Below are positions 31,055 to 61,325 of a DNA stretch of 64,000 nucleotides, one piece after another. This DNA comes from an uncultured Staphylococcaceae bacterium (GTDB lineage Bacteria; Bacillota_I; Bacilli_A; RFN20; CAG-826). The position numbers and the translations under genes are program-made. The notes under the pieces were generated by a model. It was not told where the DNA came from and searched no databases. It saw nothing but the letters and a program-made list of their open reading frames with translations. The DNA lies in assembly GCA_964392865.1 (NCBI GenBank), contig CAYMRJ010000001.1:71263-135262 (forward strand), in the 5' to 3' direction. Within the stretch, counting starts at the first letter, position 1; each line of letters opens with the position of its first letter.

Positions 31055-33835
31055 TCATTTTACGGGCTTCTTCCTTCTCCTTAGAAGGATGGAAAAGACT
31101 TCGTAGAGAATGGTGGCGGCCAGTCCTATCACCATGAACGGAACGACGCTTAGGAGAATCGAAGGGTCATACGTAAATGAAAGGCCTGTCTGGAATGAAT
31201 CGGCGATGATGTAGGAAACGAAGAACTCGATGAAGACCGACATGAAGGCGCTGATGGCGAAGGCCGAAAGAAGGACCAAGAGATTCACGAAGAAAGAGGA
31301 GGCCATGATGTCTTCCTTCCCGATCCCCAGCTCTTCCAGCAAACGCTTCTCCCTCTTCCCTTCTTGTGCGAAGAGGAAACAAGTGGAGAGCAAGAGCAAT
31401 ATCGCGAAGAAGTAGGCGACATAGGAAAGAAGGCCCAGGAAGTTCGAGAAGATGCTCGTGAGCGAGGAGATGCTTTCCTCCATCGCGATGTAGGGGCGGC
31501 TGAGCGTGTAGTTTGGAAATAGGCTAAGCAAAGAGGCGAAGGCCGCCTCTTCCTTCCCTTCCTCCAGATAGCAGATGAGCTTCGTGGGTCTTAGGTAAAA
31601 CGTCGACATCCCGATGACGTATGAGAAGAAATCCTCCGCATAACGGCCGTCATGTCCCAAGGAATCGAATTGGCTATCGAAGATTCCGCTCACCTTGAGG
31701 TTGGCCTTTCTGATATCGCGGATGCAGTAGCCGCTGACGATCTCTTCCCCGATCGTCGCCCCGATATTGATGTAGCTTGGGTAGCCGAGTTTCTCTGCAA
31801 GGCTCGTGCTTATGCCGATCTCGTCCAAAGAGGCCGGAGGGACTCCGCTTACGTATTCGCTCACCGTGGCCGGATATAAAGTCAAGGATGCCGAAGCCGG
31901 CAGCATGTAGGAACCCTTGATGACCCCATCGGGCAATTCGGCTTCGTAGTCCTTCTCGGCTTCCTTGACATAGCTGACCGCATCGATGACTTCGTCTATT
32001 TCCTCATCGGTCCTTGCGACATAGAAGGGATATAGGAAGCCCGTCATGTAGGCGCTTGGGAAGGTGACGTAGCTCCCGTCCGTGCAGGTCAAAACGGAAC
32101 TGACCCCGTCGACTTCCATCGCCGCTTCGATCTGTTCTTCTTCCATCTTCCTTTCGTCGGCCAGATAGACGTAGTAGCGGTTCAGATCGCATCTCTTTCC
32201 GACCTCGCAGTGGGTCTTCTCGTAGTCCGAACTGACGACATCGAAGACGTAGCCGGAGAACCTTCCCCGTCTAATCTCCGTCAGGAAATCCGTCTCGTTG
32301 GCCGGGACGACGTAGGGGATCTTCTGGATGAGCCAAGGCAAGGAACCGTCCGGCTCATCGGTGCTAGGAAGCCTCATCTTGAATTCGAAAAGGTAGGTCG
32401 ACCATTCGTTCGAGTAGTGGTAGATGGTCGGAACGTCGCTTCTGGTTACGGCGACGATATCCAAGACCTGTTCGTCTTCGTAGGCCCAGGAGTAATTGCC
32501 CATCCGAAATATAAGTTGGAGCCCGTTTTCCTCGATGTACTCCCCCAAGGTCTCGTAGCTTCTGAGAATCTGGAGCCCGTAGCAGACATTGGCCATCGAG
32601 GCATAAGGAAGGCCCAAGATGATCTGGTCGTCTTCCAAGAAAGACGGGAGTTCCGGCACCGCCCCGTAGATCGAATCGGGATAGAGGTAATCGTTCGCGG
32701 TCCTTAAAGAGAGGCCCGGAACCACGATCTTCGAACTCTTATGTGGGATGAAGGCTTCGTGGTAGTCGGGAAAGAAATTCTCGAAATCGGCGACATAGGT
32801 GATCCCGTAATCGGCGAAGACATCGGGATATTCCGATACCAAAGTCGTTACGTCATCCAAAGGTGCCGAGATGATGCGGGTGAAGGTCGGCTCATCAGGA
32901 TTGCTCTTTTCGATGACGACGCTCGGGTAGCCGACGATCGAAGTGAAGGCTTTGCTTACTTCTCCGGACAAACCATCGCTTAGGTAAGTCGAAAAAAGCA
33001 TCGTCACCATGGCGATGGTCAAAGCCGATATGGCGACGGCCGTCCTCTTGCTCTTCTCCTTCAAGGTCCTAGCGGCGTGCCCGAGCCAAAAGCCATAGGG
33101 AACATGAGGCTTTTCCTTGAAGTATTTCTTCCTTATGGGCCGCGGGGTTTCTCCACTTTTCCCTTCCCCTTTGACGGGCTTGCCGAGGCGCCCGTCCTTC
33201 AGCTCGTATATCCAATCGGCGTATTTCCTAAGCAATCCCTTGTCGTGGCTTACGACCACGACCAAGGCTTTGGCCGCATAGCTTTTGAGGACTTCGAAGA
33301 CCTTGGCGGCGCTTGCCTCGTCAAGAGCGCTGCTCGGCTCATCGCAAAGCAAAAGGGGAGGATCGTTGGCAAGGCTTCTTCCGAGAGCAACCCTCGCCTT
33401 TTCCCCGCCCGAAAGGCGATTGACGGCCGTCCTCTCTTTCTTCTCCAAACCGCCAAGAGCCAATAGGTCTTTGCCCTTCTTCCTACGGATGGCCCCCTTC
33501 TCCTTCTGAGCGGCGACATAGGGGAGAAGGCAATTGTCCCTGGCCGATTCAAGATCCAGCAAAGCGTGGTTCTGCCTAAAGAAGCCGACTTCCCTAAGGC
33601 GATGGGAAGATAGGGCCTCTTCCTTCATGGTGCGGTAATCGGCCCCGAAGACCTTCAGTTCCCCTTTGAAGTCGGTATCGAGTCCCCCGAGGATATTGAG
33701 AAGCGTCGATTTCCCCGATCCCGAAACGCCTTCGATCCCGATGAAGCCCCTATCGGGGAATTCAAAGGAAAGGTCAATCAAAACGTCCTGTGTCCCGAAG
33801 GATTTATAGAGGTGCTTGGCGAGGATTCCGCTCAT
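31055..33835 (-). CDS. MacB-like fused ABC transporter (ATPase + about 480-aa extracytoplasmic domain + FtsX permease), 926 aa
   Basis: Walker A GVSGSGKST, LSGGEKARVALGRSL, Walker B LLLCDEPSSALD; TM1 then large extracytoplasmic region then 3 C-terminal TMs. Confidence 0.8.
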   Translation of the reverse strand: MSGILAKHLYKSFGTQDVLIDLSFEFPDRGFIGIEGVSGSGKSTLLNILGGLDTDFKGELKVFGADYRTMKEEALSSHRLREVGFFRQNHALLDLESARDNCLLPYVAAQKEKGAIRRKKGKDLLALGGLEKKERTAVNRLSGGEKARVALGRSLANDPPLLLCDEPSSALDEASAAKVFEVLKSYAAKALVVVVSHDKGLLRKYADWIYELKDGRLGKPVKGEGKSGETPRPIRKKYFKEKPHVPYGFWLGHAARTLKEKSKRTAVAISALTIAMVTMLFSTYLSDGLSGEVSKAFTSIVGYPSVVIEKSNPDEPTFTRIISAPLDDVTTLVSEYPDVFADYGITYVADFENFFPDYHEAFIPHKSSKIVVPGLSLRTANDYLYPDSIYGAVPELPSFLEDDQIILGLPYASMANVCYGLQILRSYETLGEYIEENGLQLIFRMGNYSWAYEDEQVLDIVAVTRSDVPTIYHYSNEWSTYLFEFKMRLPSTDEPDGSLPWLIQKIPYVVPANETDFLTEIRRGRFSGYVFDVVSSDYEKTHCEVGKRCDLNRYYVYLADERKMEEEQIEAAMEVDGVSSVLTCTDGSYVTFPSAYMTGFLYPFYVARTDEEIDEVIDAVSYVKEAEKDYEAELPDGVIKGSYMLPASASLTLYPATVSEYVSGVPPASLDEIGISTSLAEKLGYPSYINIGATIGEEIVSGYCIRDIRKANLKVSGIFDSQFDSLGHDGRYAEDFFSYVIGMSTFYLRPTKLICYLEEGKEEAAFASLLSLFPNYTLSRPYIAMEESISSLTSIFSNFLGLLSYVAYFFAILLLLSTCFLFAQEGKREKRLLEELGIGKEDIMASSFFVNLLVLLSAFAISAFMSVFIEFFVSYIIADSFQTGLSFTYDPSILLSVVPFMVIGLAATILYEVFSILLRRRKKPVK

Positions 33836-35880
33836 TCGTCCCTAAGTTCCTCGTAGATCTTCCCTTTAATGAGGGCCCTGGCTCCGAAAATGACGGCAAA
33901 GAAGGAAACCAAGAGCGCCACTAAAAGCGCGAGAATCGGTAGCAAATACGGTATCCCGAGGAAGTTCTCGAAAGGCACCTGCATGAGGTTTTCCAAACCG
34001 AAGAGGCTAAGGAACATGGCGTTCAGCTTCTCCTGCAGGAAATAGACGCCCGCCATCGCCGAGACCGTCCCCAAAAGCACCGGGGCGCACCCCTCGTAGA
34101 GATAAGGCGAGACGATGGCTTCGTAATCCTCGCCAATAGAGGAAAGGATGGCCCCTTCCTTCTTCCGTTTGAGATACCGGGAATAGGCCAAAGCGAACGT
34201 CAGGAAAAGGCTGGCCAAGAACCCAACCCCGACGAAGAAAGGAAGCAAGGCCAGTAAGGCTCCGAAGATATCCGAATACGAAGTCACGGCGGTCAACGAA
34301 AACGAATCGCTGAAGAAAGCATCTTCTTCATCTATTTCTAGGATCCTTTCCCAAAAGGCGGGAAGGCTCGCTTTCTTATGGCAGAAGACGAGATACCGGT
34401 AAGAGGAATAGGCGCTTTCCCCATCGGCCTCCGCCACCAGATCCCCGATGGTCTCTCCCCCGAAGACATCGGGCAGCTCATAGGAATGCATGAGTTCGCG
34501 GAGTCCGCTATAGGAATAGAAAAGCTTCGGGGTCGTGAGATAGGAGAACTCTTTGATCTTCCCCGCGATCTCGAATTCGAATTCCATCTCGAAGTCATGG
34601 GTGGCTTCTCCTTCAGCCAAGCCAACCGATGAGGAAAAGGTGACGGTGGACCCAATATCGAGGGGAATGTCATCGAAGAAGGCTTCGTTTCCGAAGCACT
34701 TCGTGAAGTCGTTTCCCTTAGGCAAACTGCCTTCCAAAAGGAAATCGGTTCCGATATCGCTGAGCGATAAATCGAAAAGGGGGATCAGGCTTACCGGCCC
34801 GTAGGCTTCTTCGTCGGATGTGATGGTCGCCGCCGTCGGGAAGAAATAGGAATAATCGTCGGCGACCGATACGTTTTCGATATCGGAAAAGACGGCGTCG
34901 GCCAAATCCTTCTCGGGCCGGTAGGACCGCCTGAGATTGAGGGGCGAGCCCTCGATGACGATCGTTTCGCTCCCGCCGAAGGTGGCCTGGGCGCACTCGG
35001 CGTACTCGTATTTCTTGGCCTCGATCGATGCCTCGGCCCCCATCGCCGCCCCCAGGCCGATGAAGGCGACGGCGAATGATACGAAGGCCACTCCATAGGA
35101 GGCGAGATTGCTCCATGCGTCTTCCCTGAGATTCCTTTTGAGGATCGGCTGATCGATCGCCTTTTGGCGTAGGCTTCTTCTCTTCGGTTTCCTGAGTTTC
35201 TTCCTTTCGCCTTCGGCCAACGCCATAAGGTGCCCGTTTTCCAAGCGGAAAATCCTATCGGCGTACTCAGAAGCGAGTTCTTCGTTATGGGTAACCAGAA
35301 GGACCAGGCGCTTCCGGCTTTCCTCTTTGAGGACGTCCATCACGACCTTGGCCGAAGCGCTATCGAGGGCCCCGGTCGGCTCGTCGGCCAAGATAAGGGA
35401 GGGCTCGTTCATCAAGGCTCTCGCGAGAGCCGCCCTTTGCTTCTCGCCGCCGGATAAAGTAGCGGCCGATTGCTTCTGCTTCCCCTCGAGCCCGAGCTTT
35501 TTAAGAAGCTCATTGGCCCTTTGCTCGGCCTCGTTCCTCCTTTTCCCGGCTACCAAGGCCGGAAGGCAGACGTTATAGGAGACATCGAAATCCTCTAAGA
35601 GGTTGTAGTGCTGGAAAAGGAATCCTATTTCCTTGTTTCTTAAAGCGGCGGCCTGCTTGCCCGTCAGTCTCCGATAATCGATACCGCCTATTTCGATCGT
35701 TCCATCGCTCGGCTTCTCGATGCCGGCGATTAGCGAAAGAAGGGTCGATTTCCCGGCCCCGGAGCGCCCCATGATGGCGAAAAGCCCCCTGTCCGGGAGG
35801 GAGAGGCTGATCCCGCGCAAAACCTCGATCCTCCCTTCCGGACCCTTGAACGACTTTTTTAGTCCTTTACCTTCGAGCAC
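33832..35880 (-). CDS. MacB-like fused ABC transporter (ATPase + FtsX permease), 682 aa
   Basis: Walker A GRSGAGKST, LSGGEKQRAALARAL, Walker B ILADEPTGALD; MacB topology; overlaps downstream paralog by 4 nt. Confidence 0.8.
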   Translation of the reverse strand: MLEGKGLKKSFKGPEGRIEVLRGISLSLPDRGLFAIMGRSGAGKSTLLSLIAGIEKPSDGTIEIGGIDYRRLTGKQAAALRNKEIGFLFQHYNLLEDFDVSYNVCLPALVAGKRRNEAEQRANELLKKLGLEGKQKQSAATLSGGEKQRAALARALMNEPSLILADEPTGALDSASAKVVMDVLKEESRKRLVLLVTHNEELASEYADRIFRLENGHLMALAEGERKKLRKPKRRSLRQKAIDQPILKRNLREDAWSNLASYGVAFVSFAVAFIGLGAAMGAEASIEAKKYEYAECAQATFGGSETIVIEGSPLNLRRSYRPEKDLADAVFSDIENVSVADDYSYFFPTAATITSDEEAYGPVSLIPLFDLSLSDIGTDFLLEGSLPKGNDFTKCFGNEAFFDDIPLDIGSTVTFSSSVGLAEGEATHDFEMEFEFEIAGKIKEFSYLTTPKLFYSYSGLRELMHSYELPDVFGGETIGDLVAEADGESAYSSYRYLVFCHKKASLPAFWERILEIDEEDAFFSDSFSLTAVTSYSDIFGALLALLPFFVGVGFLASLFLTFALAYSRYLKRKKEGAILSSIGEDYEAIVSPYLYEGCAPVLLGTVSAMAGVYFLQEKLNAMFLSLFGLENLMQVPFENFLGIPYLLPILALLVALLVSFFAVIFGARALIKGKIYEELRDE

Positions 35881-35919: not shown

Positions 35920-36144
35920 CTAGTTGGTCCCTAATTCGATCAAATTTTCGTGATGGGAGACGATTTTCTTAAACTTCTGATTGAAGGCGTCCCTGGTCAT
36001 CATCATGACCCGCCCGCAGCCAAGGCACCTGATCTTTATGTCGGCGCCGACCCGGACGATTTGGAAAAGCTTGGTCCTTTTGTCGCAGGGATGCTCCTTC
36101 CGCATCTCCACGACGTCATAAAGGCGGATTTCCGGCATTACCAA
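35920..36144 (-). CDS. DUF951 family small protein (YyzM-like)
   Basis: 74 aa with D..EMRK.H.C......W.I.R.GADIKI.C..C...MMM.R motif. Confidence 0.55.
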   Translation of the reverse strand: MVMPEIRLYDVVEMRKEHPCDKRTKLFQIVRVGADIKIRCLGCGRVMMMTRDAFNQKFKKIVSHHENLIELGTN

Positions 36145-38496: not shown

Positions 38497-39327
38497 TTAT
38501 CCTTCCTTCGGGAATTGGTGGCGGAGGAAAGTGAGCTGCCGCTTGGCATAGTTCCTCGTCGCCTTCTTCATCATATCCTTGGCTTCGTCCAAAGTGCGGC
38601 TGCCATTAAGGTAACCGGCGATTTCCTTGATTCCGATGGCTCTGGCGGCCGGGACATCAAAGCCGTACTTGTCGATGAAGGCTTTGACTTCATCGACCGC
38701 CCCCTCTTCGAACATCCTATCCACCCTCTTATCGATGGCGGCATAGAGTTCTTCCCTATCGGGTTCCACCCGAATGAATTCTGTATTCGGGTAATAAGGC
38801 TTCGACATATCGGCCTTCTCGATCTTGCTCATCGGGTGGCCCGATAAAGCCAAGATCAAGGCTCTCGTGATCCTCACGCGGTTATGGGGATGGATGGCCG
38901 CCGCCGTTTCGGGGTCGAGTTCGTTCAAGAGGTCGTATAGGTTTTCGGTGCTCTCCGATTCGTCGATCGAAGCCTTTTCGAAATCCTCGAAGCGGTAATC
39001 ATAGAGGGCCGCTCTCACGTAAAGCAAAGTGCCACCGACGAGGATGGGGGTCTTGCCTTGGGCATGGACTTCATCGATGGCCTTGCGGCAGGCAGCCTGG
39101 TAATCGGCGACCGAGTAATAAACGTTCGGCTCCAGGAAACCATAAAGAAGGTGCGGGACTTCCTCTTTGTCTTTTGAACTTGGAGCGGCAGTTATGACCT
39201 CGAGTCCTTTATAGGCCTGGAAGGCATCGGCCCCGATGATGACGCCATCGATTTCTTTGGCCAGTTCGATGGCCTTCCGGCTTTTGCCAGAGGCCGTCGG
39301 GCCGATGATGGCGATGACCTTATCCAT
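38497..39327 (-). CDS. miaA: tRNA dimethylallyltransferase
   Basis: P-loop GPTASGKS; 276 aa. Confidence 0.9.
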   Translation of the reverse strand: MDKVIAIIGPTASGKSRKAIELAKEIDGVIIGADAFQAYKGLEVITAAPSSKDKEEVPHLLYGFLEPNVYYSVADYQAACRKAIDEVHAQGKTPILVGGTLLYVRAALYDYRFEDFEKASIDESESTENLYDLLNELDPETAAAIHPHNRVRITRALILALSGHPMSKIEKADMSKPYYPNTEFIRVEPDREELYAAIDKRVDRMFEEGAVDEVKAFIDKYGFDVPAARAIGIKEIAGYLNGSRTLDEAKDMMKKATRNYAKRQLTFLRHQFPKEG

Positions 39328-41056
39328 TGAGAATGGCCTCGGCTTCGCTAAGCAAACCCATCACCTCGTCCTTGTAGGCTTCCCTATTGGCGAAGCGCGG
39401 ATCTTCTTCTATCGCCTCTAGAAGCGAGAGGTATTCTTCCTTGGCTTTGGAGTGGGCATTATCAGACGTAGCCAAGGACATCGACTGCTTGAGGCTGGCC
39501 AGCTTAGCGACCTTCTTCCGGAAATCGAGATCGTCCCGGAGCATATCGTTGTAGCGGAGGAATTCTTCGGCGGCCGGATCCCTCTTGAGGAGGTCGGCGC
39601 AGTAGCGGGCCTTATAGAGGATCGGATCGCCGACCAATTCGCCGATTAACGAATAGGTATGCGATTCCTTGATATGGACTTTGACAAGGCAGCCCCTTAG
39701 GTAGGACGGCCCTTCGAAATGGATGAGCTTGTTTTCCCTCGTGTAGCCGGAAAGCATGCCGGAATCCTTCTTCGACTCCCCGTCGACCAAGACTTCGACT
39801 TCCTGTCCTACTAGTTTGGCCGAGCTAGCCTCGACAGATTTATCGACGACTTTGAGGAGGCGGAGGAAGCGCTCCTTCTTCATATCGTCGGGGATCTGTT
39901 CTTTCTTCGCAGCCGGTGTCCCTTCCCGCGGGGAATAGATGAAGGTGAAGGCTCCGTCGAAGCCGACTTCTTCGACGACCTCGAGAGTCTCTTGGAAATC
40001 TTCCTCTTCTTCTCCCGGGAAGCCGACGATGATGTCGGTGGTAATGTTAACGCCTGGAATCCTTTCCCTGATCTTCCCCGCCAAGGCCAGATACTCTTCC
40101 TTGGTGTAGCGGCGTCCCATATTGCGAAGGACTTTCGTCGACCCGCTTTGAAGGGGCAGATGGATGGACTTCATGATCGTCTCTTCTTCGGCGATCGCCT
40201 CGATCATCTCGTCGGTGAAGTTCCAAGGGTGGCTCGTCAGGAAACGGATACGGGGGATACCGATCTTGGCCGCTTCTTTAAGAAGCGTAGCGAAGTCCCC
40301 GGTCTCCAAGTCGTTGCCGTAGCTATTGACGTTTTGCCCTAGCAAGGTGATTTCCTGATAGCCGTCCAGATAGAGTTCCCGGCATTCCTTGAGGATATCC
40401 TCCATCTCGCGGCTTCTTTCCCTTCCCCGGGTATAGGGGACGATGCAGTAGGTGCAGAACTTGTCACACCCATAGGAAATGTCGACGAAGGCCTTGTAGG
40501 GGTCGCTTCTAGAAGCCGAAAGACCTTCTATTACATCTCCGGACGAAGAAACGACATCGAGGATCCTCGTCTTCTTTTCGAGGTGTTCGGACAAAAGGAG
40601 GGGGAGACTGGCGATATTGTGGGTCCCGAGGATGGCGCTTACTTGGCTGTACTTCCGGAGCAACGCTTCGCCCTTTTCCTCTTCCTGCATCATGCAGCCG
40701 GCCAAGATGAGGGCGAACTCGGGATTCTTCTTGGCGATGGCCTTGTACTTCCCTAATTCCCCGTAGACCTTGTCTTCGGCGTTTTCCCTGACGGCGCACG
40801 TATTGATGATGACGACGCTGGCCTCTTCGGGATTTTCTGTCGGGCGCATGCCCATGTCGGAAAGTAGGCCCGCCATCGTTTCGGAATCGCGGACATTCCC
40901 TTGGCAGCCGTAGGTCTTGATGTAGAAAAGCTTTCCTTCGTAGGCCTTGAGGTTTTCGGGATAGACGACCTGGCTATAATCGACCTTCCTTCCCTCGATC
41001 CTCTGCCGGGCTTTCTTGAAATCCGGCTTGCTTTTGATTTCAATCCGCCCCGACAT
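39320..41056 (-). CDS. miaB: tRNA-i6A37 methylthiotransferase MiaB fused to a C-terminal YmcA/RicA (UPF0342)-like domain
   Basis: TRAM/UPF0004 N-domain, radical-SAM CxxxCxxC (YGCDKFCTYCIVP), TRAM domain, then about 110-aa helical extension resembling YmcA/YlbF family; 578 aa versus about 450-510 for typical MiaB. Confidence 0.8.
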   Translation of the reverse strand: MSGRIEIKSKPDFKKARQRIEGRKVDYSQVVYPENLKAYEGKLFYIKTYGCQGNVRDSETMAGLLSDMGMRPTENPEEASVVIINTCAVRENAEDKVYGELGKYKAIAKKNPEFALILAGCMMQEEEKGEALLRKYSQVSAILGTHNIASLPLLLSEHLEKKTRILDVVSSSGDVIEGLSASRSDPYKAFVDISYGCDKFCTYCIVPYTRGRERSREMEDILKECRELYLDGYQEITLLGQNVNSYGNDLETGDFATLLKEAAKIGIPRIRFLTSHPWNFTDEMIEAIAEEETIMKSIHLPLQSGSTKVLRNMGRRYTKEEYLALAGKIRERIPGVNITTDIIVGFPGEEEEDFQETLEVVEEVGFDGAFTFIYSPREGTPAAKKEQIPDDMKKERFLRLLKVVDKSVEASSAKLVGQEVEVLVDGESKKDSGMLSGYTRENKLIHFEGPSYLRGCLVKVHIKESHTYSLIGELVGDPILYKARYCADLLKRDPAAEEFLRYNDMLRDDLDFRKKVAKLASLKQSMSLATSDNAHSKAKEEYLSLLEAIEEDPRFANREAYKDEVMGLLSEAEAILNG

Positions 41057-41822
41057 CGATTCGCTCCTTGAAGGTTTCTATGGAAACCGGGAAACGGCTT
41101 CCTTCCGCAAACTCAATTATCGCCCCGGTCGAGATGTATCGGCCACTTCCGGCAAGGGAAATGCGGCCTTCTTTATTGACGAAGCGCTCGACCGCCGATT
41201 TCGGATCGAAACCGATGACTCCGCCCTCGAAAGAAGTGGATCCGGCATCGGTCAAAAAAGCCGTCCCGTTTTCCAAAATGAGGGCATCGTCGGTCAGGAC
41301 GTGCGTATGAGTGCCGAGGACGGCGCTTACCCGCCCGTCGACATAATGGGCGAAGATGGCCTTCTCGGCCGTCGACTCGGCGTGGAAGTCGACGATATGG
41401 ATGTCCGAGGCATCTTCCTTAAGAAGATTGTCTATCGCCTCGAAAGGGCAGGCGGCCGCTTCCTTGATGAAGGCCCTACCCAAAACGGAAGTAACCCTAA
41501 TCTTCTTCCCTTGGACTTCGTAGACATTGCTGCCAAGCCCCGGATAGTCGACGTTCAAAGGACGGATGAGGCGATTGGCCGATTTGATGAAGTCCTTGGT
41601 CTGATGCTTCCCGGCGTAGTGGTTCCCAAGCGTCACGCAGTCGACGCCCAGATTCTTGAGCGACTTGAAGTCCTTCGGCAAAAGGCCTTTTCCCTTGGAG
41701 ATGTTTTCGCCGTTTGCGATGACGAAGTCGGCCTTCGTCTTTTCCCTTATAGACGGCAAAAGGAGAGACAGGGCCTTGAGCCCCATCTCCCCGACGACGT
41801 CTCCGAAGAAAAGTATCCGCAA
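41040..41822 (-). CDS. ymdB: YmdB-type metallophosphoesterase (2',3'-cyclic nucleotide phosphodiesterase, TIGR00282)
   Basis: MRILFFGDVVG...GNH motifs; 260 aa; directly downstream of rny as in B. subtilis. Confidence 0.85.
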   Translation of the reverse strand: MRILFFGDVVGEMGLKALSLLLPSIREKTKADFVIANGENISKGKGLLPKDFKSLKNLGVDCVTLGNHYAGKHQTKDFIKSANRLIRPLNVDYPGLGSNVYEVQGKKIRVTSVLGRAFIKEAAACPFEAIDNLLKEDASDIHIVDFHAESTAEKAIFAHYVDGRVSAVLGTHTHVLTDDALILENGTAFLTDAGSTSFEGGVIGFDPKSAVERFVNKEGRISLAGSGRYISTGAIIEFAEGSRFPVSIETFKERIDVGAD

Positions 41823-41826
41823 GGCT

Positions 41827-43437
41827 TTACTTGGCCGTATCGCTGGCCCGGTATTCGCGGATGACGTTGACCTTGATCTGGCCCGGGTACGTCATGGTCT
41901 GTTCGATCTGCTCGCGGATCTGCTGGGCCATCAAAGCGGCCTTGGCATCGTCGACCCGGTCGGGCATGACCATGACCCTGATCTCGCGGCCCGACTGCAT
42001 GGCATAGGCCTGGGCAACGCCATCGTAGTTCTTGGCCAGATTCTCGAGGGCCTCGATCCTCTTGATGTAGGTCTCGACCGTTTCGCTCCTGGCGCCCGGA
42101 CGGGCGGCGGAAAGGGTATCGGCGGCCGCGACCAAATTGGAAATGACGTAGCGCGCTTCCTTATCGCCGTGGTGGCTTTCGATGGCGTTGATGACGACTT
42201 CCGGCTCGCCGTACTTCTTGGCCAGTTCGGCCCCGAGCTCGACGTGGCTGCCTTCGCGTTCGAAGTCGACGGCCTTGCCGATGTCGTGGAGGAAGCCGGC
42301 CCGCTTCGCGAGGTTCTCGTCAAGGCCGAGTTCCCCGGCCATGATGCCAGCGAGGTAGGCGACTTCCATCGAATGGTCGAGGGCGTTTTGCCCATAGGAA
42401 GTGCGGTATTTCAGGCGCCCGGCATAGCCCAATAGCTCTTTGTTGATGTTCGGAAGACCGAGTTTGAAAGCGGCCGATTCGCCGGCTTTCTGCGTGGTTT
42501 CCGCCACCTCTTTCTTGCATTTTGCGGCGATTTCCTCGATACGTCCCGGCTGGATGCGGCCGTCCTTGATGAGATATTCGAGGGCACGCTTCGCCACTTC
42601 CCTCCTGATGGGATCGAAGCAGCTGACGGTGATGGCTTCGGGCGTATCGTCGATGATGAGATCGACGCCCAAGGAAGATTCGAGGGCCCTGATATTGCGG
42701 CCTTCGCGGCCGATGATGCGGCCCTTTAGTTCGTCGGTCGGAAGGGCAACGACAGAGACGTTCCTCTCAGTCGTGACGTCCTGGGCGTATTTCTGGCAAG
42801 CCAGGGAGAGGAGGTCGATGGCCTTGGCCTGGGCCGTTTCCCTAGCTTCGTCCTCGGCATTCTTGATGTAGGCCGCGATTTCGGTCGACATCTTGCTTTT
42901 GACCCTGTCCATGATTTCGTCATGGGCTTCCTTGACGGTCAGGCCGCTGACTTTTTCGAGTTCGACGATGATGGAATCGATCTTTTCTTCGAGTTCGGCG
43001 GACTTGCGGTCATTGGCCTCGATCTTGCGGTCGAGGAGTTCGTTCTTCTCGTGGAGGGCGTTTTCCTTGGCCCTGATGCTCGATTCCCTCTGGTCCAGGG
43101 ACTGCTCCCTGAGATGGACCTTATTGGCCTCGTTTTGGACCTCGGCCTTCATGCTCCGGATCTCGTTTTCGGCCTTTTGCTTCGCGTCGAACATCATCTG
43201 GCGGGCATCGATCTCGGCGTTCTTCTTCTTCTGTTCGGCCTTGATCTCGGCTTCGTGGATGATGGCGTCGGCGCTTTTGGAAGCCTTCCGCTTCTTGCTA
43301 TCGGGAAGGACGTAAAGAAGGATGAAAACGATGGTGGCGCCGATCAAAAGGGCAGCGATGCCGACGATCAAAGAGAGCCACCAAGGGGCCATCGTCACTC
43401 CGTTGGTCCCGGGTTCGAATATGGTACTCAAAATCAT
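41827..43437 (-). CDS. rny: Ribonuclease Y
   Basis: N-terminal TM, coiled-coil, KH domain, HD domain (HDIGK); 536 aa. Confidence 0.9.
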   Translation of the reverse strand: MILSTIFEPGTNGVTMAPWWLSLIVGIAALLIGATIVFILLYVLPDSKKRKASKSADAIIHEAEIKAEQKKKNAEIDARQMMFDAKQKAENEIRSMKAEVQNEANKVHLREQSLDQRESSIRAKENALHEKNELLDRKIEANDRKSAELEEKIDSIIVELEKVSGLTVKEAHDEIMDRVKSKMSTEIAAYIKNAEDEARETAQAKAIDLLSLACQKYAQDVTTERNVSVVALPTDELKGRIIGREGRNIRALESSLGVDLIIDDTPEAITVSCFDPIRREVAKRALEYLIKDGRIQPGRIEEIAAKCKKEVAETTQKAGESAAFKLGLPNINKELLGYAGRLKYRTSYGQNALDHSMEVAYLAGIMAGELGLDENLAKRAGFLHDIGKAVDFEREGSHVELGAELAKKYGEPEVVINAIESHHGDKEARYVISNLVAAADTLSAARPGARSETVETYIKRIEALENLAKNYDGVAQAYAMQSGREIRVMVMPDRVDDAKAALMAQQIREQIEQTMTYPGQIKVNVIREYRASDTAK

Positions 43438-43625: not shown

Positions 43626-44612
43626 TTACTCTTCGCTTAGCTTTTCTTTGACGGCAGCAGCGATTTCCTCGCGCTCCGCATCATGGCTTTCGAGATAGGT
43701 CTTGGCGGCTTCTTTACCGTTTCCGATCTTCTCGCCGTTATATTGGTACCAAGAGCCGGTCTTGGAGAGGATCCCGAATTGGACCCCGAGCTCCAAGAGT
43801 TCCCCGGTGGCCGAGATGCCTTTCCCGTAGATGATTTCGAGTTCGCAGCTTTTGAAAGGCGGGGCGACCTTGTTCTTCACCACCTTGACCCTCACGGTAT
43901 TGCCGATGATCTCGGAGCCGTTCTTGATGGCTTCGGCCCGCCTGATGTCGAGGCGGAGGGTGGCGTAAAACTTAAGGGCCCTTCCGCCGGTCGTCGTTTC
44001 GGGGTTCCCGTAGACGACGCCGACCTTTTCGCGGAGCTGGTTGATGAAGATGACGACGCAGTTGGTCTTGTCGAGGATGCCGGCGAGCTTGCGCATGGCT
44101 TTGCTCATAAGGCGGGCCTGGAGGCCGACTTGGTTGTCGGACATGACGCCGTCTAGTTCGGCTTGGGGCACGAGGGCGGCGACGGAGTCGACGACGATTA
44201 GATCGATGGCGCCGCTAGCGGCCAGCATCTGGACGATTTCGAGAGCCTGTTCCCCGCTATCTGGCTGGGCGAGCACGAGTTCGTCGGTATTGACGCCGAG
44301 ATTGGCGGCGTAGGCCGGATCGATGGAGTGCTCGGCATCGATGTAGGCGCTCCGGCCCCCTTTCTTCTGGCATTCGGCGACGGCGTGGAGGGCGAGCGTG
44401 GTCTTGCCGCTCGATTCCGGACCGTAGATTTCGATGATGCGGCCGCGGGGATACCCGGCGCAGCCGATGGCCTGGTCGAGGAGGAGGGAGCCAGTCGGGA
44501 TGGCATCGACGCTTACGTGGGGATGGTCGCCGAGCTTCATGACGGCGCCCTTGCCGTAGGCCTTCTCGATCGACTTGAGGGCTTCTTCCAATGCTCTTTC
44601 TTTGTCTTCCAT
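43626..44612 (-). CDS. recA: Recombinase RecA
   Basis: Walker [10 protein letters not shown]; L1/L2 loops; 328 aa. Confidence 0.95.
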
Positions 44613-53829: not shown

Positions 53830-56800
53830 CTAGGAAATGTAGATGAAGCCGTCTTCGTCCTTATGGAGGCCGTGGCGCTTGTCGATGGCCTCGCGGAGGG
53901 CGTTCTTGATGTGGGTCTTCCGCTTTTCGCTTACGACTTCGTAGCCGAAGAGAAGGGAGACCTGCTTTATGAGATCGCTTTCGCTCATCTTCCCTTGGGC
54001 GTAGATGATGTCGCTGCAGGCGTTGCTGATCTCGATGTAGGAAATATCCTGGATGTCGCGCTTGTTCTCGCTCTTGTCGATGCGGTAGTAAGGCCAGGCC
54101 TCGGGCACGAAACCGGAGGGATAGTAGAAGGGTTCGCTGGTGCATAGCTCCGTGACCTTCGGGGTATCGCCGATGGCCAATTCGATCGAGGAGCGGAGCT
54201 TAATGCCGAGCGTCTTCTTGTCGAGGGCCTTCTTGGTCTTCTCCATGATGAGCCGCCTGGAAATCGGGCCTTCGGCATCGATGAGGCGCTTCACGGCCTC
54301 GAAGATCCTGACATCCTCGATCGAGGAGCTCGGCATATCGAGGTCGGCGTATTCGTAGGGAATCTGGTTCGGATAGAGGTTGACCTGTTTCCGGTTGAAA
54401 GAGACAGGGCCAGAATCGATGGTCCCGACATCTTCTTCGCCGACGGGTTCATTTATTTTGGCCACGATCTGGCGCACCACTTGATCGGGATGATCGAAAT
54501 ATTCGATCGACCAGAAGCGCATGAGGCGCCACCGGAGGTTCTTGAGGATGCTGGGCTGGACCAGGTTCCTATCTCTCGAAGTCGGGGTATCGCAGTAGCT
54601 AGGACCATCGAGCAAGATGCCCAAGGTGAACTTATCGGGATCGGCGGGATCGACGATGGCCAGATCGAGCCTGAAGGTCGAAGTCCCGAGGTCGACGACG
54701 GACTTATAGCCGAGTTTCTTGAGGTCCTCGGCCAGATATTTGGCGACCGTTTCCTTCCTGTCGTAAACGACGTTGCCTTGAAGATTCGGAAGGTAGGAGG
54801 TGCCTTCGGAAGCGAAGGTCAGGAAGTCCCGGAGGTAGCGGGCCCCTTCGTTCTTGGCCCTTTCGGCCCTGATCATTTCGGGCTTGATCGAAGAGAAGAC
54901 GATCATCTCCTCCCTGGAACGGGTGATGGCGACGTTCAAACGGCGTTCGCCCTTTTCCCTCGAAAGGGGGCCAAAGTTAAGCGAGAGGACCCCGGTCTTG
55001 GGATCGGGACCGTAGGTTACCGAGAAAAGGATGACGTCCCTTTCGTCCCCTTGGACGTTTTCGAGGTTCTTGACGAAGATCGACTCGCCGCCCGGATTGC
55101 TGTCGAGGCGGTTCTTCCCTTCTTCTTTTTCCAGCATGTCCATGATGAGGTTCTGCTGGGCTTCGTTGAAGGTGATGACGCCGATGGATTTCTGGCTGAG
55201 CTCGGGATCCTTGAGGCGGCGCATGACCTCGGCGACGATGGCCTTGGCTTCGTCCTTGTTGATGCCCTTGCCGCGCTCGTACTTCCCCTTTATGTAGCGG
55301 TATGAAACCGACTGCTTCTCGCTTTCCGGAGAAGGGAACGTAAGCAGGGTGTTCCCATAGAACTGGTTGTTGCTATAGGCGATAAGGGATTCGTGGCGGC
55401 TGCGGTAATGCCAATTGAGGCGGTTCCGCTTAAGGCCCATGACGATGGCGTCGTCGAGCAAGGACTCGAGATCCTCGTCGAGGCTCTTGAAGTAGTCGCC
55501 GCCTTCGATGGAACCGGAGACGTTGACGGCGAAGTAGTTGCTCGGCGGCATCTGCTGCTGGTCGCCGGCAATGACAATCGACTTGGCCCTGGAGATGGCG
55601 CCGACGGCTTCGCTGGTCGGAATCTGGCTGGCTTCATCAAAGATGACGACGTCGAACTTATCGGTGGGCTGGAGGAATTGGGCCACCGAAAGCGGCGACA
55701 TCAGGAAGCAGGGGCATAGGGTATGGATGAGATCGGAGAAGGAAACGAAGATGTTCCTTAGCGAGATGGAACGGCCGCCGCTACGGGCGATCTTCCTCAG
55801 CTGATAGACCTCGGTAGTCGAAGCGAGGTTTTCGGTAACCAAGGGGTAGGACTTGGTGATGCGGCTCGCCGTTTCGACGACCGAAAGGCGCTCCAGTTCG
55901 TTTAGTTCCTTCCCGTAGTCTTCGATGGTCTTGAGGACTTCTTCGCCGGAAAGGTTTTCGAGCTTGGCGTCCTTGGCGGCGTAGGCCACGGTCTTGTAGC
56001 AAAGGGCATTGACGTAGGCGTCGCGGAGCTCGAGGTCGCCGATACGGCCTTCCTCGTAGCTTTCGACGAGGCCTTCCGGAGAAACGGCCCGGCATTCGTC
56101 CAAAACGGTCAGGAACTTCGTCCAGCCGCCGAGGAGCCCTTCGTTTGCGATGACGTTACTAACCTTCTGGGCTTCCTTCTTGAAGTATTCGCGGTCGTCC
56201 GGATAGCGTTCGGTATCGAAGTCGAACTTGTTCCTTAACTGATCGCAGACGAAGGAGCGTTCCGATAGATGGCGACGCAGTTTCCGGTCATTGTCTTCCC
56301 AGAGTTTCGTGTAATCCCCGCCGGCTTTTGCGAGGATATCGGCCAATTTTTCGAAGTTGGTATTGCGGGCGCAGTCCATCTCGCGAAGGAGTTTTCCGAT
56401 CTTGATCGAAGCCTCATAGCCCTTCTCGATAGCTTCGTACCTTTCCGGTTCCCCGGGAAGGCTCGGGAAGATGAATTTCGGATAAGAGCCGAGGTTCTCG
56501 ACCTGCTTATGGAGATTGTCCAAAGCCTTGAGGCTTTCGACGGTAACAAGAGAAAGTTTCTTGTTCGGCTTCCCGCCTTCGAGGTAGTAATCCTTGAGGA
56601 TCTTCTGGATTTCCTTAAGCGGTTTCTTCCGCTTGAAGAGAGAAGCCTGAGTGAACTCTTCCTTCAGGTCGCTGAGTTCCCCGACCTCGGCCGAAAGGAT
56701 CGTCCGGTCGAAGGATTTGGTGACCTTCTTGGAAATGGTGGCGATTTCCTTATTGAGGCTCAGATACTTCCTGAGGGTATCCTCGGCATCGAGGAAGATT

Positions 56801-59652
56801 TCGCTCCCCACCTTGTCGGCGAGGATTTCCTTTTCCCCTTGGAGAATTTGCGAAAGTTCGACGAAGAGGTAGGCGTTCTTCCTCGTGGTGCTAAGACCGG
56901 GGAGATTCCTAAGGCAGTTATGGAGATTGAGGGCGAGTTCCCTATCGATGTCGACGAGGGGCGCCAAAGCCTTGGGAAGGTTTTCCCTATCGAGGAGCGA
57001 GTAATCCCTCTTCTGGTAGGGAACGAAGGGATTCTCGCGGTAGCCGCGGTTCAGGCGTGAATAGGCCGTGACCCTTTCGATGCCTTCGATGGCGGCATCG
57101 TATCTTTCCTTGGTGAGGCCGCGGACATAGTCCTCGCTTACCTCATAGAGGCCTTTGGCCTTGATGCTATCGAGATAAAGCAAGATGGCATCGTAGATCG
57201 AAGCGAAGAAGTTCTCGGGAACGTGGAGTTTGGAGAGAAGCGTATTGAGCTTCGTCCTCTTCTCTTCGACTTCGGCGGCCTTCTCCTTGTAGTCGCCGGC
57301 CCCTTCCAAGGGTCCGAGTTCCAAAAGCTTATCGATGGCTTTTAGGACATCGGTCTTGTTGGTTTTGACGCTAGATAGCTGCAGGCAGAACTGGCCGAGG
57401 CCCAGTTCGTCCAAACGGTTCTTTACGACATCGAGGGCCACTTCCTTTTCGGCCACGAAGAGGACCGATTTCCCATGGTAGAGGAAGTTGACGATCATAT
57501 TGGCGATCGTCTGGCTCTTCCCGGTCCCGGGAGGCCCGTCCATGATGAAGGACTCGCCGGCCAAGGCATCGGTGATGGCCTTGATCTGGCTGGAGTCGGC
57601 GGGTAGAGGCAAAGCCAAATCGCCCGGGACGACCTTGTCATCGAGGTCCTTGATTTCGATGAGGTCGGTTTTGTCTTCCCACTTCTTCTCGCCCGAAACA
57701 AAGGAGGCGATGAAAGGATTCTGGAGAAGTTCTTCCTTCCTATTGCGGAGGTCGTTCCACATGACGAAATGGGCGAAGCCGAAGAGGCCGGCCGAGGCCG
57801 TATTCTCGTAGAGCATCCAGCCCTTCTTCTCCGAGATCTTCTCGCGGATGAAGTTGTAGATGAGGCGCAGATCGGGAAGCCCGTCCTTCATGCGGAGAGT
57901 TCCGGAAATGGGAGAGAAGTCCATATGGAAGACTTCTTCCAGATACTGGAACAAAGTCGTATTGAGTGAGAGCTCATCGAGGTCGAAGGAGAAGGAATGG
58001 TAGGTCCCTGACTTCCGGCGCGGCAGCGAAATCGGAAGCAGGAAGACCGGGGCATACATGGCTCCGCGGTTGACGCTCGCGGCTTTGTCGTTATCGAACC
58101 ACTTGAGCATCCCGATTGTCATGAACAAGGGGTTGCTGCCGGATTCTTCGAGTGCCGTATTGGCCTTTCTGGCCAAGGTCTTGAAATAGGTATCGACGTC
58201 GCCGGTTTTGGAAGTGGCGAGGATCTGCCCTTTCCTATAAGCCTCTTCCGAGAGCTTCCCGAAGGCCTTCGGCGAGAAGGAAAGGATCTTCTCCCCTTCT
58301 TCGATGGCGATGGCTCCGAATTGGAAGGGAACGACCGACATCTTGTTGCGGGTCGATAGTTCCTTCACGAGGTCTTCGGCGCTCGGGACGATGAACTGGG
58401 CGAGGCCTCCGCCGAAACGGAGGTTGATCAGCCTATTCCCGAGATTGAGGTCGAGGAGTTTCTCAAGCCAATGGTCGAAGCGGTTCTTGTCGCCCCTATC
58501 TCCGGCCGAGATATAGCGGCGGGCATCGGTATCGACCGTCGGGGTCGCCGAGTCTTCAACTTTGGTGAAATCGGGCAGGTCGACCTTGTATTCTTCGCCG
58601 ACCTTATGGGGCGTCGGAATCGGGAGGAGGTGTTCCTTCCGGCACATCGTAACGTCCAAGGCGTAGCGGAACCTAGCTTCGACGGAAAGGGTCTTGTACC
58701 CGTTCTCGACGGCTTGGTCGAACGGCGATAGCTGGGAGGAATGGCCCATCGTCACATCGATGACGGCGAGATGCTCGAAGCCTTTGCTCGCCGCGGTGAT
58801 CAAATAAGACCCGTTTTCCTCATAGGGAGAGCAACTCGAATCATCGTCGAGCCAGACGCCGACCATGGCGTGGCTGCGGAGCAAAATGAGGACCGGTTTA
58901 AGGCCGATCGATTCGGCCAAGGATGCATAAAGCAGCGCAAAATCCAAGCAAGTCGCCACTTTTTCCTGCAAAACCTGATAGGGCAGGCGGACGCGCTGGA
59001 AGGTCTTTTCGAAGTTGGTCGGAGGGTTGCTGTAGCGGATGTCGCGCTTGGACATCGCCTTATAGAGAGCCTCCAGTTCCTCATAGACCTTGTTGGGGTC
59101 ATGGTACTGGTAGCCGGAGAAGCTGTTGCGCCCGGTCTTTTCCTTGAGTTCGCCGGCCGCTTCGGCAACGACCTTCTTCACTTCGTCGTCATTGGGAGTG
59201 ACGAAGCTGCTGAGGATCTCCGGAATACGGACATCGCTCGCGCTTTCTTCGATCGGAAGAAGTTTGAGGTTATGGACCTTCTGGGCCAGGCTTTGGCCTT
59301 CGCTATCGACGATCTCGAAAGAGAGGGCGCAAGGCACGCCTTCGTTCAGGTGATAGAGATCGACGGCGTTGACGAAGATCGAGAAGGAAGTCAGAAGGGT
59401 CTTCTTCCCGGCTTCGAGGACCGAAATATGAAGGGGCGCGACGGTAATTCCAGGGAAGTTGCTATTGATGAGGAGATCGACTTCCCTTAGGTCATGGGTT
59501 CCCCTGTTTTCGATGGTCACCGACCTGAGGAAAGAGAAGGCATTCTGCCTATTTTGTCCCGAGACTCTCTTGAGTTCGTTTTCGACCTGGTAATTTACAT
59601 AAGTAAATTCCTTAAGGCCTTCGATGGATATCAACAGCGTATTTTCTGACAT
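53830..59652 (-). CDS. Giant (1940 aa) multidomain protein: large N-terminal region + SF1B Upf1-like helicase + Vsr/DUF559-like nuclease-fold domain + DUF3320-like C-terminus
   Basis: Walker A GPPGTGKSQT (aa about 706-715), motifs VVIFDEASQ, RSRHESLI, GVITFNEAQ, VQGDERDVILFS, NVAITRSREE; later FRLDLAIVDP...LGILLDGPSY block; no TM segments. Confidence 0.7.
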   Translation of the reverse strand: MSENTLLISIEGLKEFTYVNYQVENELKRVSGQNRQNAFSFLRSVTIENRGTHDLREVDLLINSNFPGITVAPLHISVLEAGKKTLLTSFSIFVNAVDLYHLNEGVPCALSFEIVDSEGQSLAQKVHNLKLLPIEESASDVRIPEILSSFVTPNDDEVKKVVAEAAGELKEKTGRNSFSGYQYHDPNKVYEELEALYKAMSKRDIRYSNPPTNFEKTFQRVRLPYQVLQEKVATCLDFALLYASLAESIGLKPVLILLRSHAMVGVWLDDDSSCSPYEENGSYLITAASKGFEHLAVIDVTMGHSSQLSPFDQAVENGYKTLSVEARFRYALDVTMCRKEHLLPIPTPHKVGEEYKVDLPDFTKVEDSATPTVDTDARRYISAGDRGDKNRFDHWLEKLLDLNLGNRLINLRFGGGLAQFIVPSAEDLVKELSTRNKMSVVPFQFGAIAIEEGEKILSFSPKAFGKLSEEAYRKGQILATSKTGDVDTYFKTLARKANTALEESGSNPLFMTIGMLKWFDNDKAASVNRGAMYAPVFLLPISLPRRKSGTYHSFSFDLDELSLNTTLFQYLEEVFHMDFSPISGTLRMKDGLPDLRLIYNFIREKISEKKGWMLYENTASAGLFGFAHFVMWNDLRNRKEELLQNPFIASFVSGEKKWEDKTDLIEIKDLDDKVVPGDLALPLPADSSQIKAITDALAGESFIMDGPPGTGKSQTIANMIVNFLYHGKSVLFVAEKEVALDVVKNRLDELGLGQFCLQLSSVKTNKTDVLKAIDKLLELGPLEGAGDYKEKAAEVEEKRTKLNTLLSKLHVPENFFASIYDAILLYLDSIKAKGLYEVSEDYVRGLTKERYDAAIEGIERVTAYSRLNRGYRENPFVPYQKRDYSLLDRENLPKALAPLVDIDRELALNLHNCLRNLPGLSTTRKNAYLFVELSQILQGEKEILADKVGSEIFLDAEDTLRKYLSLNKEIATISKKVTKSFDRTILSAEVGELSDLKEEFTQASLFKRKKPLKEIQKILKDYYLEGGKPNKKLSLVTVESLKALDNLHKQVENLGSYPKFIFPSLPGEPERYEAIEKGYEASIKIGKLLREMDCARNTNFEKLADILAKAGGDYTKLWEDNDRKLRRHLSERSFVCDQLRNKFDFDTERYPDDREYFKKEAQKVSNVIANEGLLGGWTKFLTVLDECRAVSPEGLVESYEEGRIGDLELRDAYVNALCYKTVAYAAKDAKLENLSGEEVLKTIEDYGKELNELERLSVVETASRITKSYPLVTENLASTTEVYQLRKIARSGGRSISLRNIFVSFSDLIHTLCPCFLMSPLSVAQFLQPTDKFDVVIFDEASQIPTSEAVGAISRAKSIVIAGDQQQMPPSNYFAVNVSGSIEGGDYFKSLDEDLESLLDDAIVMGLKRNRLNWHYRSRHESLIAYSNNQFYGNTLLTFPSPESEKQSVSYRYIKGKYERGKGINKDEAKAIVAEVMRRLKDPELSQKSIGVITFNEAQQNLIMDMLEKEEGKNRLDSNPGGESIFVKNLENVQGDERDVILFSVTYGPDPKTGVLSLNFGPLSREKGERRLNVAITRSREEMIVFSSIKPEMIRAERAKNEGARYLRDFLTFASEGTSYLPNLQGNVVYDRKETVAKYLAEDLKKLGYKSVVDLGTSTFRLDLAIVDPADPDKFTLGILLDGPSYCDTPTSRDRNLVQPSILKNLRWRLMRFWSIEYFDHPDQVVRQIVAKINEPVGEEDVGTIDSGPVSFNRKQVNLYPNQIPYEYADLDMPSSSIEDVRIFEAVKRLIDAEGPISRRLIMEKTKKALDKKTLGIKLRSSIELAIGDTPKVTELCTSEPFYYPSGFVPEAWPYYRIDKSENKRDIQDISYIEISNACSDIIYAQGKMSESDLIKQVSLLFGYEVVSEKRKTHIKNALREAIDKRHGLHKDEDGFIYIS

Positions 59653-61293: not shown

Positions 61294-61325
61294 CGGCCCT
61301 AATTATCCTTAAGCGAGGTCAAAAT

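Follow-up and report, generated by a model that had tools for sequence, protein, structure and literature searches.

The window analysed here is a stretch of 64,000 nucleotides (nt) from an uncultured Staphylococcaceae bacterium (GTDB lineage Bacteria; Bacillota_I; Bacilli_A; RFN20; CAG-826; GenBank assembly GCA_964392865.1, contig CAYMRJ010000001.1, positions 71,263 to 135,262 of the forward strand), and all positions given below are counted from its first letter. Its minus strand carries miaB::ricA, a single gene in which miaB, encoding the methylthiotransferase that makes 2-methylthio-N6-isopentenyladenosine at tRNA position 37 (ms2i6A37), runs on into a sequence of the ricA (ymcA) type. 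We consider it probable, with good confidence, that this is a true and evolutionarily retained fusion of two neighbouring genes, the tail of which would act as a pairing module.

RicA has been described as a helical subunit of the Com_YlbF family within the RicAFT ‘Y-complex’, where it loads RicT onto RNase Y. It pairs through helices alpha1, alpha2 and alpha5, either as a stable antiparallel homodimer or as a heterodimer with RicF (RicAF). RicA and RicF have nearly the same structure and serve as shuttles that bring RicT to RNase Y. Almost all firmicutes have RicT, whereas the distribution of RicA and RicF is patchy. The role of RicA has been debated, RicA having been linked to the phosphorelay and to RicT loading onto RNase Y. 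Two papers report that miaB and ricA form a co-transcribed bicistronic operon with conserved synteny, and one of them, of 2010, called it unclear how the two genes are related in function.

Organization of the miaB::ricA Gene

The features of the gene and of its surroundings are listed in Table 1. The open reading frame (ORF) listing of the window contains no internal stop in the fusion ORF, and the DNA across the junction is in frame (gaa ttg gtc ggc gat ccg atc ctc..., encoding E L V G D P I L Y K, nt 39640-39611). The initial annotation had described a complete MiaB followed by a helical extension of about 110 amino acids (aa), and had pointed to a stop or frameshift splitting the ORF at about 39650-39700 as one observation that would undo the fusion. 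No such break exists and MiaB is complete, while the extension after the TRAM domain is slightly shorter than had been thought, at 103 aa (residues 476-578). A public protein collection holds an entry, P0001, that is 100% identical to the window fusion protein.

Table 1. Features of the miaB::ricA region and of other genes in the window.
Feature	Position	Strand	Basis or remark
Whole fusion gene miaB::ricA	39320..41056	(-)	single ORF, 578 aa + stop, ATG start
N-terminal extension, residues 1-43, ahead of the methylthiotransferase (MTTase) domain	40928..41056	(-)	ORF and Pfam
UPF0004 / MTTase N-terminal domain, residues 44-144	40625..40927	(-)	PF00919, 94.2 bits
Radical S-adenosylmethionine (SAM) core, residues 193-359	39980..40480	(-)	PF04055, 103.1 bits
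TRAM domain, residues 414-475, tRNA-binding module of MiaB	39632..39817	(-)	PF01938, 39.9 bits
Fusion junction G476-D477, two-residue turn, then P478	39626..39631	(-)	continuous frame
RicA(YmcA)-like five-helix module, residues 478-578 (101 aa)	39323..39625	(-)	profile, model, Foldseek
ymdB (metallophosphoesterase), directly upstream	41040..41822	(-)	PF13277, 268 bits
rny (RNase Y)	41827..43437	(-)	RNase_Y_N, KH and HD domains; conserved synteny
recA, upstream	43626..44612	(-)	window neighbour analysis
miaA (tRNA isopentenyltransferase; makes N6-isopentenyladenosine, i6A37, the MiaB substrate)	38497..39327	(-)	PF01715, 238 bits
ThiF-family E1-like gene, possibly TcdA-like (synthase of cyclic N6-threonylcarbamoyladenosine, ct6A37), after miaA	37812..38549	(-)	PF00899, 98.5 bits
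74-aa ORF just after fhs	35920..36144	(-)	CxxC..CxxC-like pattern
Tandem overlapping genes, 926 and 682 aa, just downstream of the operon	31055..35880	(-)	
Third large gene, 868 aa	20474..23080	(-)	
1940-aa ORF between a small membrane-protein-like ORF and parB	53830..59652	(-)	
parB, parA, rsmG, mnmG, right end of the window	59706..63871	(-)	identified by N-terminal sequence only

Residues 44-475 align with positions 2-437 of the 437 in TIGR01574, the NCBIfam equivalog model for MiaB, at 510.2 bits against a cutoff of 355.3. The MiaB half is complete, with the motifs of both Fe-S clusters and the TRAM domain. The auxiliary-cluster cysteines C51, C87 and C121 of the UPF0004 domain are invariant among 45 orthologs, and so is the radical-SAM motif YGCDKFCTYCIVPYTRG (YGCDKFCTYC), which supplies the CxxxCxxC signature as C197-x3-C201-x2-C204. 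The first 43 residues are also conserved among the orthologs: M1 and P11 are nearly invariant and A16 is invariant.

A structure model of the full-length protein was confident (predicted local distance difference test, pLDDT, 89.4; predicted template modelling score, pTM, 0.88). In this model the TRAM region (419-475) consists of beta strands, the last of which (470-475) turns straight into helix alpha1 (478-492) of the tail, and there is no low-confidence linker between them. In the main fused clade P478 is invariant and D477 nearly so. A Foldseek search placed the MiaB part next to Bacteroides MiaB (7MJZ/7MJV; target-normalised template modelling, TM, score 0.88-0.90; 38-39% identity).

Identity of the C-Terminal Module

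The window tail alone matches PF06133 (Com_YlbF) over profile positions 3-100 of 105, at 13.3-17.5 bits (E 0.006-0.12; cutoff 23.9). We turned to an alignment of 45 non-redundant orthologous tails, because the RicA-like domain is too divergent for pairwise methods: the tail alone gave nothing useful in a word-index search and a phmmer search against the Protein Data Bank (PDB), and B. subtilis RicA and RicF as phmmer queries matched none of the window ORFs. Individually, 40 of the 45 tails matched PF06133 at E ≤ 0.01 (the best at 5.5 × 10−13), and a PF06133 match is precomputed for most of the 120 best orthologs. When the profile of the 45 tails was compared with the PDB, RicA 6PRH_A was found at E = 2.3 × 10−8 (positions 7-104 against residues 12-111), YmcA 2PIH at 3.9 × 10−8 and RicF at 5.3 × 10−3, all over the full length, and a YheA-type protein reached E = 0.4.

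An AlphaFold2 model of the tail, built from the same alignment, has five helices (pLDDT 96.5). The comparison of such a model with RicA structures, which the initial annotation had proposed, returned RicA, RicF and YmcA chains exclusively at the top: the four best Foldseek matches were 6PRK_A, 2PIH_A, 6PRH and 6PRK_B (probability 1.00, TM 0.61-0.68), and beyond the chains of these proteins the TM score dropped to 0.5 or lower. The fold cannot separate RicA from RicF, so the assignment to RicA rather than RicF rests on the sequence profile and on gene position. For the latter, we sampled 80 MiaB loci (numbered with the prefix L) from species-representative genomes, a sample of loci and not a census of fusions. 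A free ricA lies directly 3' of miaB in 41 of the 80 (a miaB ORF being detected in 39), and this very position, directly after MiaB, is that of the fused tail.

These results show that the tail is a RicA-type five-helix core. It might be supposed that it is a generic coiled coil or a helical extension unrelated to RicA, given that the window tail alone stays under the Pfam gathering score and that the single-sequence searches, including phmmer with B. subtilis RicA, were empty. However, a full-length profile match to RicA at E = 2 × 10−8, a Foldseek probability of 1.00 for RicA, RicF and YmcA only, with the next TM at 0.5 or lower, and free orthologs located exactly at the ricA position make this very improbable, and we rejected it. 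The assignment of the tail to the YmcA/YlbF family in the initial annotation is thus borne out by the profile, by the fold and by positional orthology. The Pfam family was correctly given as PF06133, and the label UPF0342 used with it was loose.

Conservation of the Fusion

The fusion gene comes from a metagenome-type assembly, and close outgroups have separate overlapping genes; hence a sequencing or assembly frameshift that merged two genes in one metagenome-assembled genome (MAG) had to be considered. The full-length protein search showed that all 120 best orthologs have a length of 569-587 aa and the same architecture. They were drawn from four independent data sources (NCBI, ENA, JGI and Logan assemblies), with hundreds of member sequences and many contigs, and the fusion gene recurs with the same neighbours in different samples, on independent contigs of 87-654 kb. 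Conservation extends to the junction residues. The chance that the fusion is such an artefact is practically negligible, and the explanation is effectively refuted.

The carriers of the fusion are uncultured, mostly gut or rumen Bacilli, and the MiaB cores across the fused clade have diverged to about 51% identity. The real MiaB–RicA fusion that had been proposed from the window sequence is therefore one ORF kept in all 120 best orthologs.

Evolutionary Origin of the Fusion

The sampled loci were classified by the tail hidden Markov model (HMM) and by BLAST against the neighbouring proteins of the window. A tail-only alignment was without a conserved stretch of 7-10 residues, and an alignment of TRAM plus tail was used for the genome scan. 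The fused loci in the sample (the window, L001 and L002) have the order recA-rny-ymdB-miaB::ricA-miaA-thiF-fhs. Four others (L004, L005, L007 and L010) have recA-rny-ymdB-miaB-ricA-miaA(-thiF)-fhs with a free ricA that encodes 91-103 aa from its ATG, and L003 and L028 are similar; over the sister genomes as a whole, the free ricA encodes 91-116 aa. The short free RicAs are the top scorers against the fused-tail profile, at up to 69 bits. In Bacillales, the free RicA encoded just 3' of miaB is longer, in most cases about 140-165 aa; this agrees with the literature and with the earlier statement that ymcA of B. subtilis stands by itself directly downstream of miaB. The order recA-rny-ymdB-miaB is kept without ricA in some Erysipelotrichaceae and in an Acholeplasmataceae MAG.

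In the unfused relatives, the miaB stop overlaps the ricA start by 4 or 8 nt. The junction of L007 reads GTT AAA TGA / ATG AAC (an ATGA overlap), and those of L003, L010 and L028 are 8-nt overlaps of the form ATGnnnTAA/TGA. Because the stop and the start overlap in this way, a small frame-shifting indel would fuse both ORFs. Checking the junction in related genomes, as had been suggested, gave two answers: there is no stop in the 120 best orthologs, but the sister genomes have separate, overlapping genes.

A neighbour-joining tree of the MiaB core was constructed with 100 bootstraps. The main fused clade was monophyletic in 90 of 100 bootstraps, and the fused state defines one large clade of Bacilli. 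L002, which is fused and has a content of guanine and cytosine of 29%, nests among unfused genomes (83 of 100 bootstraps); its linker (GELVDEDSLI) differs, and it retains an out-of-frame ATG as a relic. The fusion probably arose independently at least twice, the second event resting on this distance tree and on one genome (L002).

The initial annotation had offered, as an alternative, that the ymcB-ymcA adjacency originated from the fusion. The adjacency of miaB and ricA is far wider than the fusion and occurs in Bacillales, Erysipelotrichales-like MAGs and some Clostridia. Because the fused clade is both nested within and sister to genomes in which miaB and ricA are separate and overlap, the fusion is derived from overlapping neighbour genes and not ancestral. 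An ancestral fusion was rejected on these two grounds.

Loss of the Cysteine-Bearing Tail

In B. subtilis RicA, C141 on the C-terminal tail ligates [4Fe-4S] cluster 2 together with C167 of RicT and C134/C146 of RicF, and the C141S mutation abolishes function. For each RicA-like gene adjoining miaB in the sampled loci, we listed the residues that follow helix alpha5. RicA of Bacillales usually has a tail of about 34 residues past alpha5 with a Cys at its end. All short RicAs, free or fused, end 0-14 residues after alpha5 without a Cys there, and the window protein ends about 1 residue beyond it. The sole Cys in the window tail, C486, is in helix alpha1 and is not conserved. RicA of the fused-clade lineage, fused or free, has lost the Cys-bearing C-terminal tail.

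The free short RicA is a large family. The 45-tail profile, searched against 1.84 billion proteins, found 629 representatives at E ≤ 1 × 10−3 and 144 at E ≤ 1 × 10−10, and most of the best 150 listed matches are about 103 aa long.

Other C-terminal variants were seen in the sample. In L006 (Pallidibacillus), L013/L016 (Sporolactobacillus), L021 (Tepidibacillus), L023 and L032 (Sporosarcina), RicA is long or intermediate and the tail Cys is also missing, so the cluster-2 ligand is not universal even in cultured Bacillales. In four Clostridia / Eubacteriales / Lachnospiraceae MAGs (L066, L068, L069 and L079), the ORF directly 3' of miaB is a Com_YlbF gene that ends in a tail of 22-25 aa with four Cys (e.g., ..PSCTHDCSACSGCH); this tail is more like the Cys-rich C-terminus described for RicF than Bacillus RicA with its single Cys. 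In L031 (contig DASQNU010000114.1, labelled Candidatus Bathyarchaeia archaeon), miaB is of the Bacillales type and precedes a gene for a 147-aa RicA whose tail contains CC; the contig appears to be bacterial contamination of an archaeal MAG or to have been mis-binned.

Gene Neighbourhood

The genes from rny through the ThiF-like gene overlap or abut. The fusion start codon lies inside the end of ymdB (an overlap of 17 nt), and the fusion stop overlaps the miaA start by 8 nt (ATGGATAA; AATGGATAA). A scan of the coding (minus) strand found no terminator-like or promoter-like site above chance. As had been noted at the outset, ymdB and rny are directly upstream of the fusion gene on the same strand. 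This location had been read as a link between the fusion and RNase Y; the position is correct, but it is not special to the fusion, because recA-rny-ymdB-(x)-miaB-ricA is also found in unfused genomes and the order occurs in ricA-less ones, and the ymdB synteny is conserved in fused and unfused relatives alike. The order recA-rny-ymdB-(x)-miaB-ricA is an ancient Firmicute synteny. Four Coriobacteriia / Actinomycetes / Atopobiaceae MAGs (L046, L053, L070 and L080) have recA-rny-miaB-miaA without ymdB or ricA; the recA-rny-miaB linkage therefore extends beyond Firmicutes.

On the other side of the fusion, the ThiF-family gene keeps its position after miaA across the fused clade, and fhs lies downstream of it. 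Of the NCBIfam models, TcdA matches the ThiF-family gene best, but its 99.5 bits are far below the cutoff (304 bits), and we take this as a lead only. If the gene is TcdA-like, the block would contain three consecutive modification enzymes of tRNA position 37.

Several further genes of the window were recorded. The tandem pair of 926 and 682 aa keeps its position across the fused clade, and the orthologs of this pair and of the 868-aa gene have ABC_tran and FtsX domains (fused ATPase-permease). The positional counterpart of the 74-aa ORF in relatives is PF06107 (DUF951), and the ORF had no NCBIfam match. Because parB, parA, rsmG and mnmG are at the right end of the window, the miaB::ricA operon lies about 20 kb from the origin-proximal gene set.

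Comparison with Known Systems

The window MiaB has the UPF0004 domain with three Cys, the CxxxCxxC motif and the TRAM domain, like B. subtilis MiaB (YmcB) and Bacteroides MiaB (PDB 7MJV-7MJZ), and as in Bacillus it is encoded beside ricA in a recA-rny-ymdB neighbourhood. Unlike both of these enzymes, it carries a covalent RicA-like module of 101 aa past TRAM. Another difference is that miaA directly follows in the window, whereas it is elsewhere in Bacillus (about 7-9 kb downstream in some Bacillales loci).

The module itself shares with B. subtilis RicA/YmcA (2PIH, 6PRH, 6PRK) the five-helix Com_YlbF fold, a full-length profile match and the position 3' of miaB. It is only about 18-20% identical to that protein, however, it is not a free protein, and the B. 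subtilis tail of about 34 residues (..VTDEII.STGGDLL.GETGS..C) is absent from it. Its closest relatives, at 67-69 bits to the tail profile, are the free short RicAs of uncultured Bacilli/Erysipelotrichales (e.g., L003, L007 and L028, about 103 aa), which have the same tail-less architecture and belong to the same operon. Unlike the fused tail, they are separate genes, the ATG of which overlaps the miaB stop.

The YvfG protein is small and helical. PDB 9A6D, an integrative model of B. subtilis MtaB-YvfG, was among the structural neighbours found for the MiaB core. MtaB is a paralog of MiaB, and its pairing with YvfG is a loose precedent for a protein partner in this enzyme family. However, the partner is a different one and non-covalent, and the modification made by MtaB is 2-methylthio-N6-threonylcarbamoyladenosine (ms2t6A). 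We found no discussion of the MtaB-YvfG pair in the main text of the proteomics paper associated with 9A6D.

Possible Role of the Fusion

The fusion may have come about by a small frame-shifting indel that welded both genes at the overlapping miaB stop and ricA start. The MiaB half is predicted to methylthiolate still the i6A37 made by the co-transcribed MiaA, whose gene is the next one. The RicA module would be a rigidly attached helical pairing surface that acts, like the RicA homodimer or RicA-RicF, via alpha1, alpha2 and alpha5. Such pairing may either dimerise MiaB or let it dock, close to membrane-bound RNase Y, on a RicF/RicT partner. Two proteins whose translation was coupled before the fusion, and which were probably associated by then, would be fixed by it at a 1:1 stoichiometry, and the fused module would contribute no Fe-S ligand, unlike RicA of Bacillus.

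Some observations weigh against this interpretation. With about 17 bits to Pfam, the window protein has one of the most divergent tails, and the fused module lacks the equivalent of C141, which is functionally essential in B. subtilis RicA. Motif and HMM scans found no RicF-like or RicT (CX4CCX30CX4CC / PSP1) gene in the window, in 87 related loci or in the neighbourhoods of four further fused genomes; these scans covered about 20-64 kb per genome and are uninformative genome-wide, and in Bacillus such genes are located outside these regions. In the portions available to us of the supplementary lists of a whole-cell crosslinking and co-fractionation study of B. subtilis, the pair YLBF_YMCA is present and the pair MIAB_YMCA is not. 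The co-fractionation data in the same portions have YmcA concentrated in the last few fractions and MiaB across many, so a stable MiaB-RicA complex in B. subtilis gains no support from what these lists contain. Moreover, when genes overlap and are co-translated, their fusion can be neutral to selection.

This last point leads to the alternative that two functionally unrelated halves act independently, MiaB on tRNA and RicA with Ric/RNase Y, and that the fusion persists because it is harmless. We regard this as a serious possibility, though short of an even chance. The 4- or 8-nt overlaps in unfused relatives make the fusion a one-step accident, and the tail evolves faster, with a mean column identity of 46% against 69% for the whole protein; no MiaB-YmcA pair is present in the portions of the B. 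subtilis interaction lists available to us, and the literature calls the miaB-ricA relationship unclear. However, a harmless accident does not readily account for a fusion that is kept across a clade with MiaB cores at about 51% identity and that probably occurred twice independently, nor for the conserved, tight G/E-D-P turn without a floppy linker, across which the model is confident. RicA must pair through alpha1, alpha2 and alpha5; therefore, a 475-aa cargo attached to alpha1 should carry a cost if MiaB and RicA had to be in different places. The adjacency and translational coupling of miaB and ricA across Bacilli also speak against it. A further explanation, which we think rather unlikely, is that RicA has left the Ric/RNase Y system and only homodimerises MiaB, for example for tRNA binding or cluster handling. 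RicA alone is a stable antiparallel homodimer, all short RicAs are without an Fe-S ligand, RicA and RicF have a limited distribution compared with RicT according to the literature, and RicF was not seen in any region scanned. Such a repurposing fits less well with the large family of free RicAs of about 103 aa (144 representatives at E ≤ 1 × 10−10), since a tail-less form that is a separate protein in many genomes suggests a role of RicA beyond that of a MiaB appendage.

We return to a retained fusion with a pairing module. The Rosetta-stone link that the initial annotation drew from it, between MiaB and the RNase Y maturation machinery, is reasonable but unproven. A broader idea is that RicA docks on MiaB throughout Bacilli and that MiaB is a genuine partner or client of the Ric/RNase Y system. 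We hold this to be speculative and doubtful, somewhat more so than the repurposing of RicA. If it were true, the coupled and repeatedly fused miaB-ricA pair would exist because of this docking, which might couple the ms2i6A37 status of tRNA to RNase Y-dependent mRNA maturation; alternatively, the Fe-S-carrying Ric complex might service the sacrificial auxiliary cluster of MiaB. The fusion would then be the first evidence for a MiaB–Ric link and would explain a pairing that has been called unexplained since 2010.

Significance

In the literature we searched, there are statements on the operon and its synteny, and we found no description of a MiaB-Com_YlbF fusion. Databases already carry PF06133 hits on the fused proteins, and the NCBI name is simply MiaB. 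What is new here is a fused variant of known parts and not a system of a new kind. Should the fusion prove neutral, it would be a tidy example of gene fusion by the loss of an overlapping stop/start, and of modest interest.

A stably inherited and probably recurrent fusion is nevertheless classic Rosetta-stone evidence that MiaB and RicA can, and perhaps must, act together at 1:1, and it makes the old miaB-ricA question testable. In addition, the existence of a large Bacilli lineage in which RicA has no Fe-S-ligating Cys challenges the ligation of cluster 2 by RicA as a general feature.

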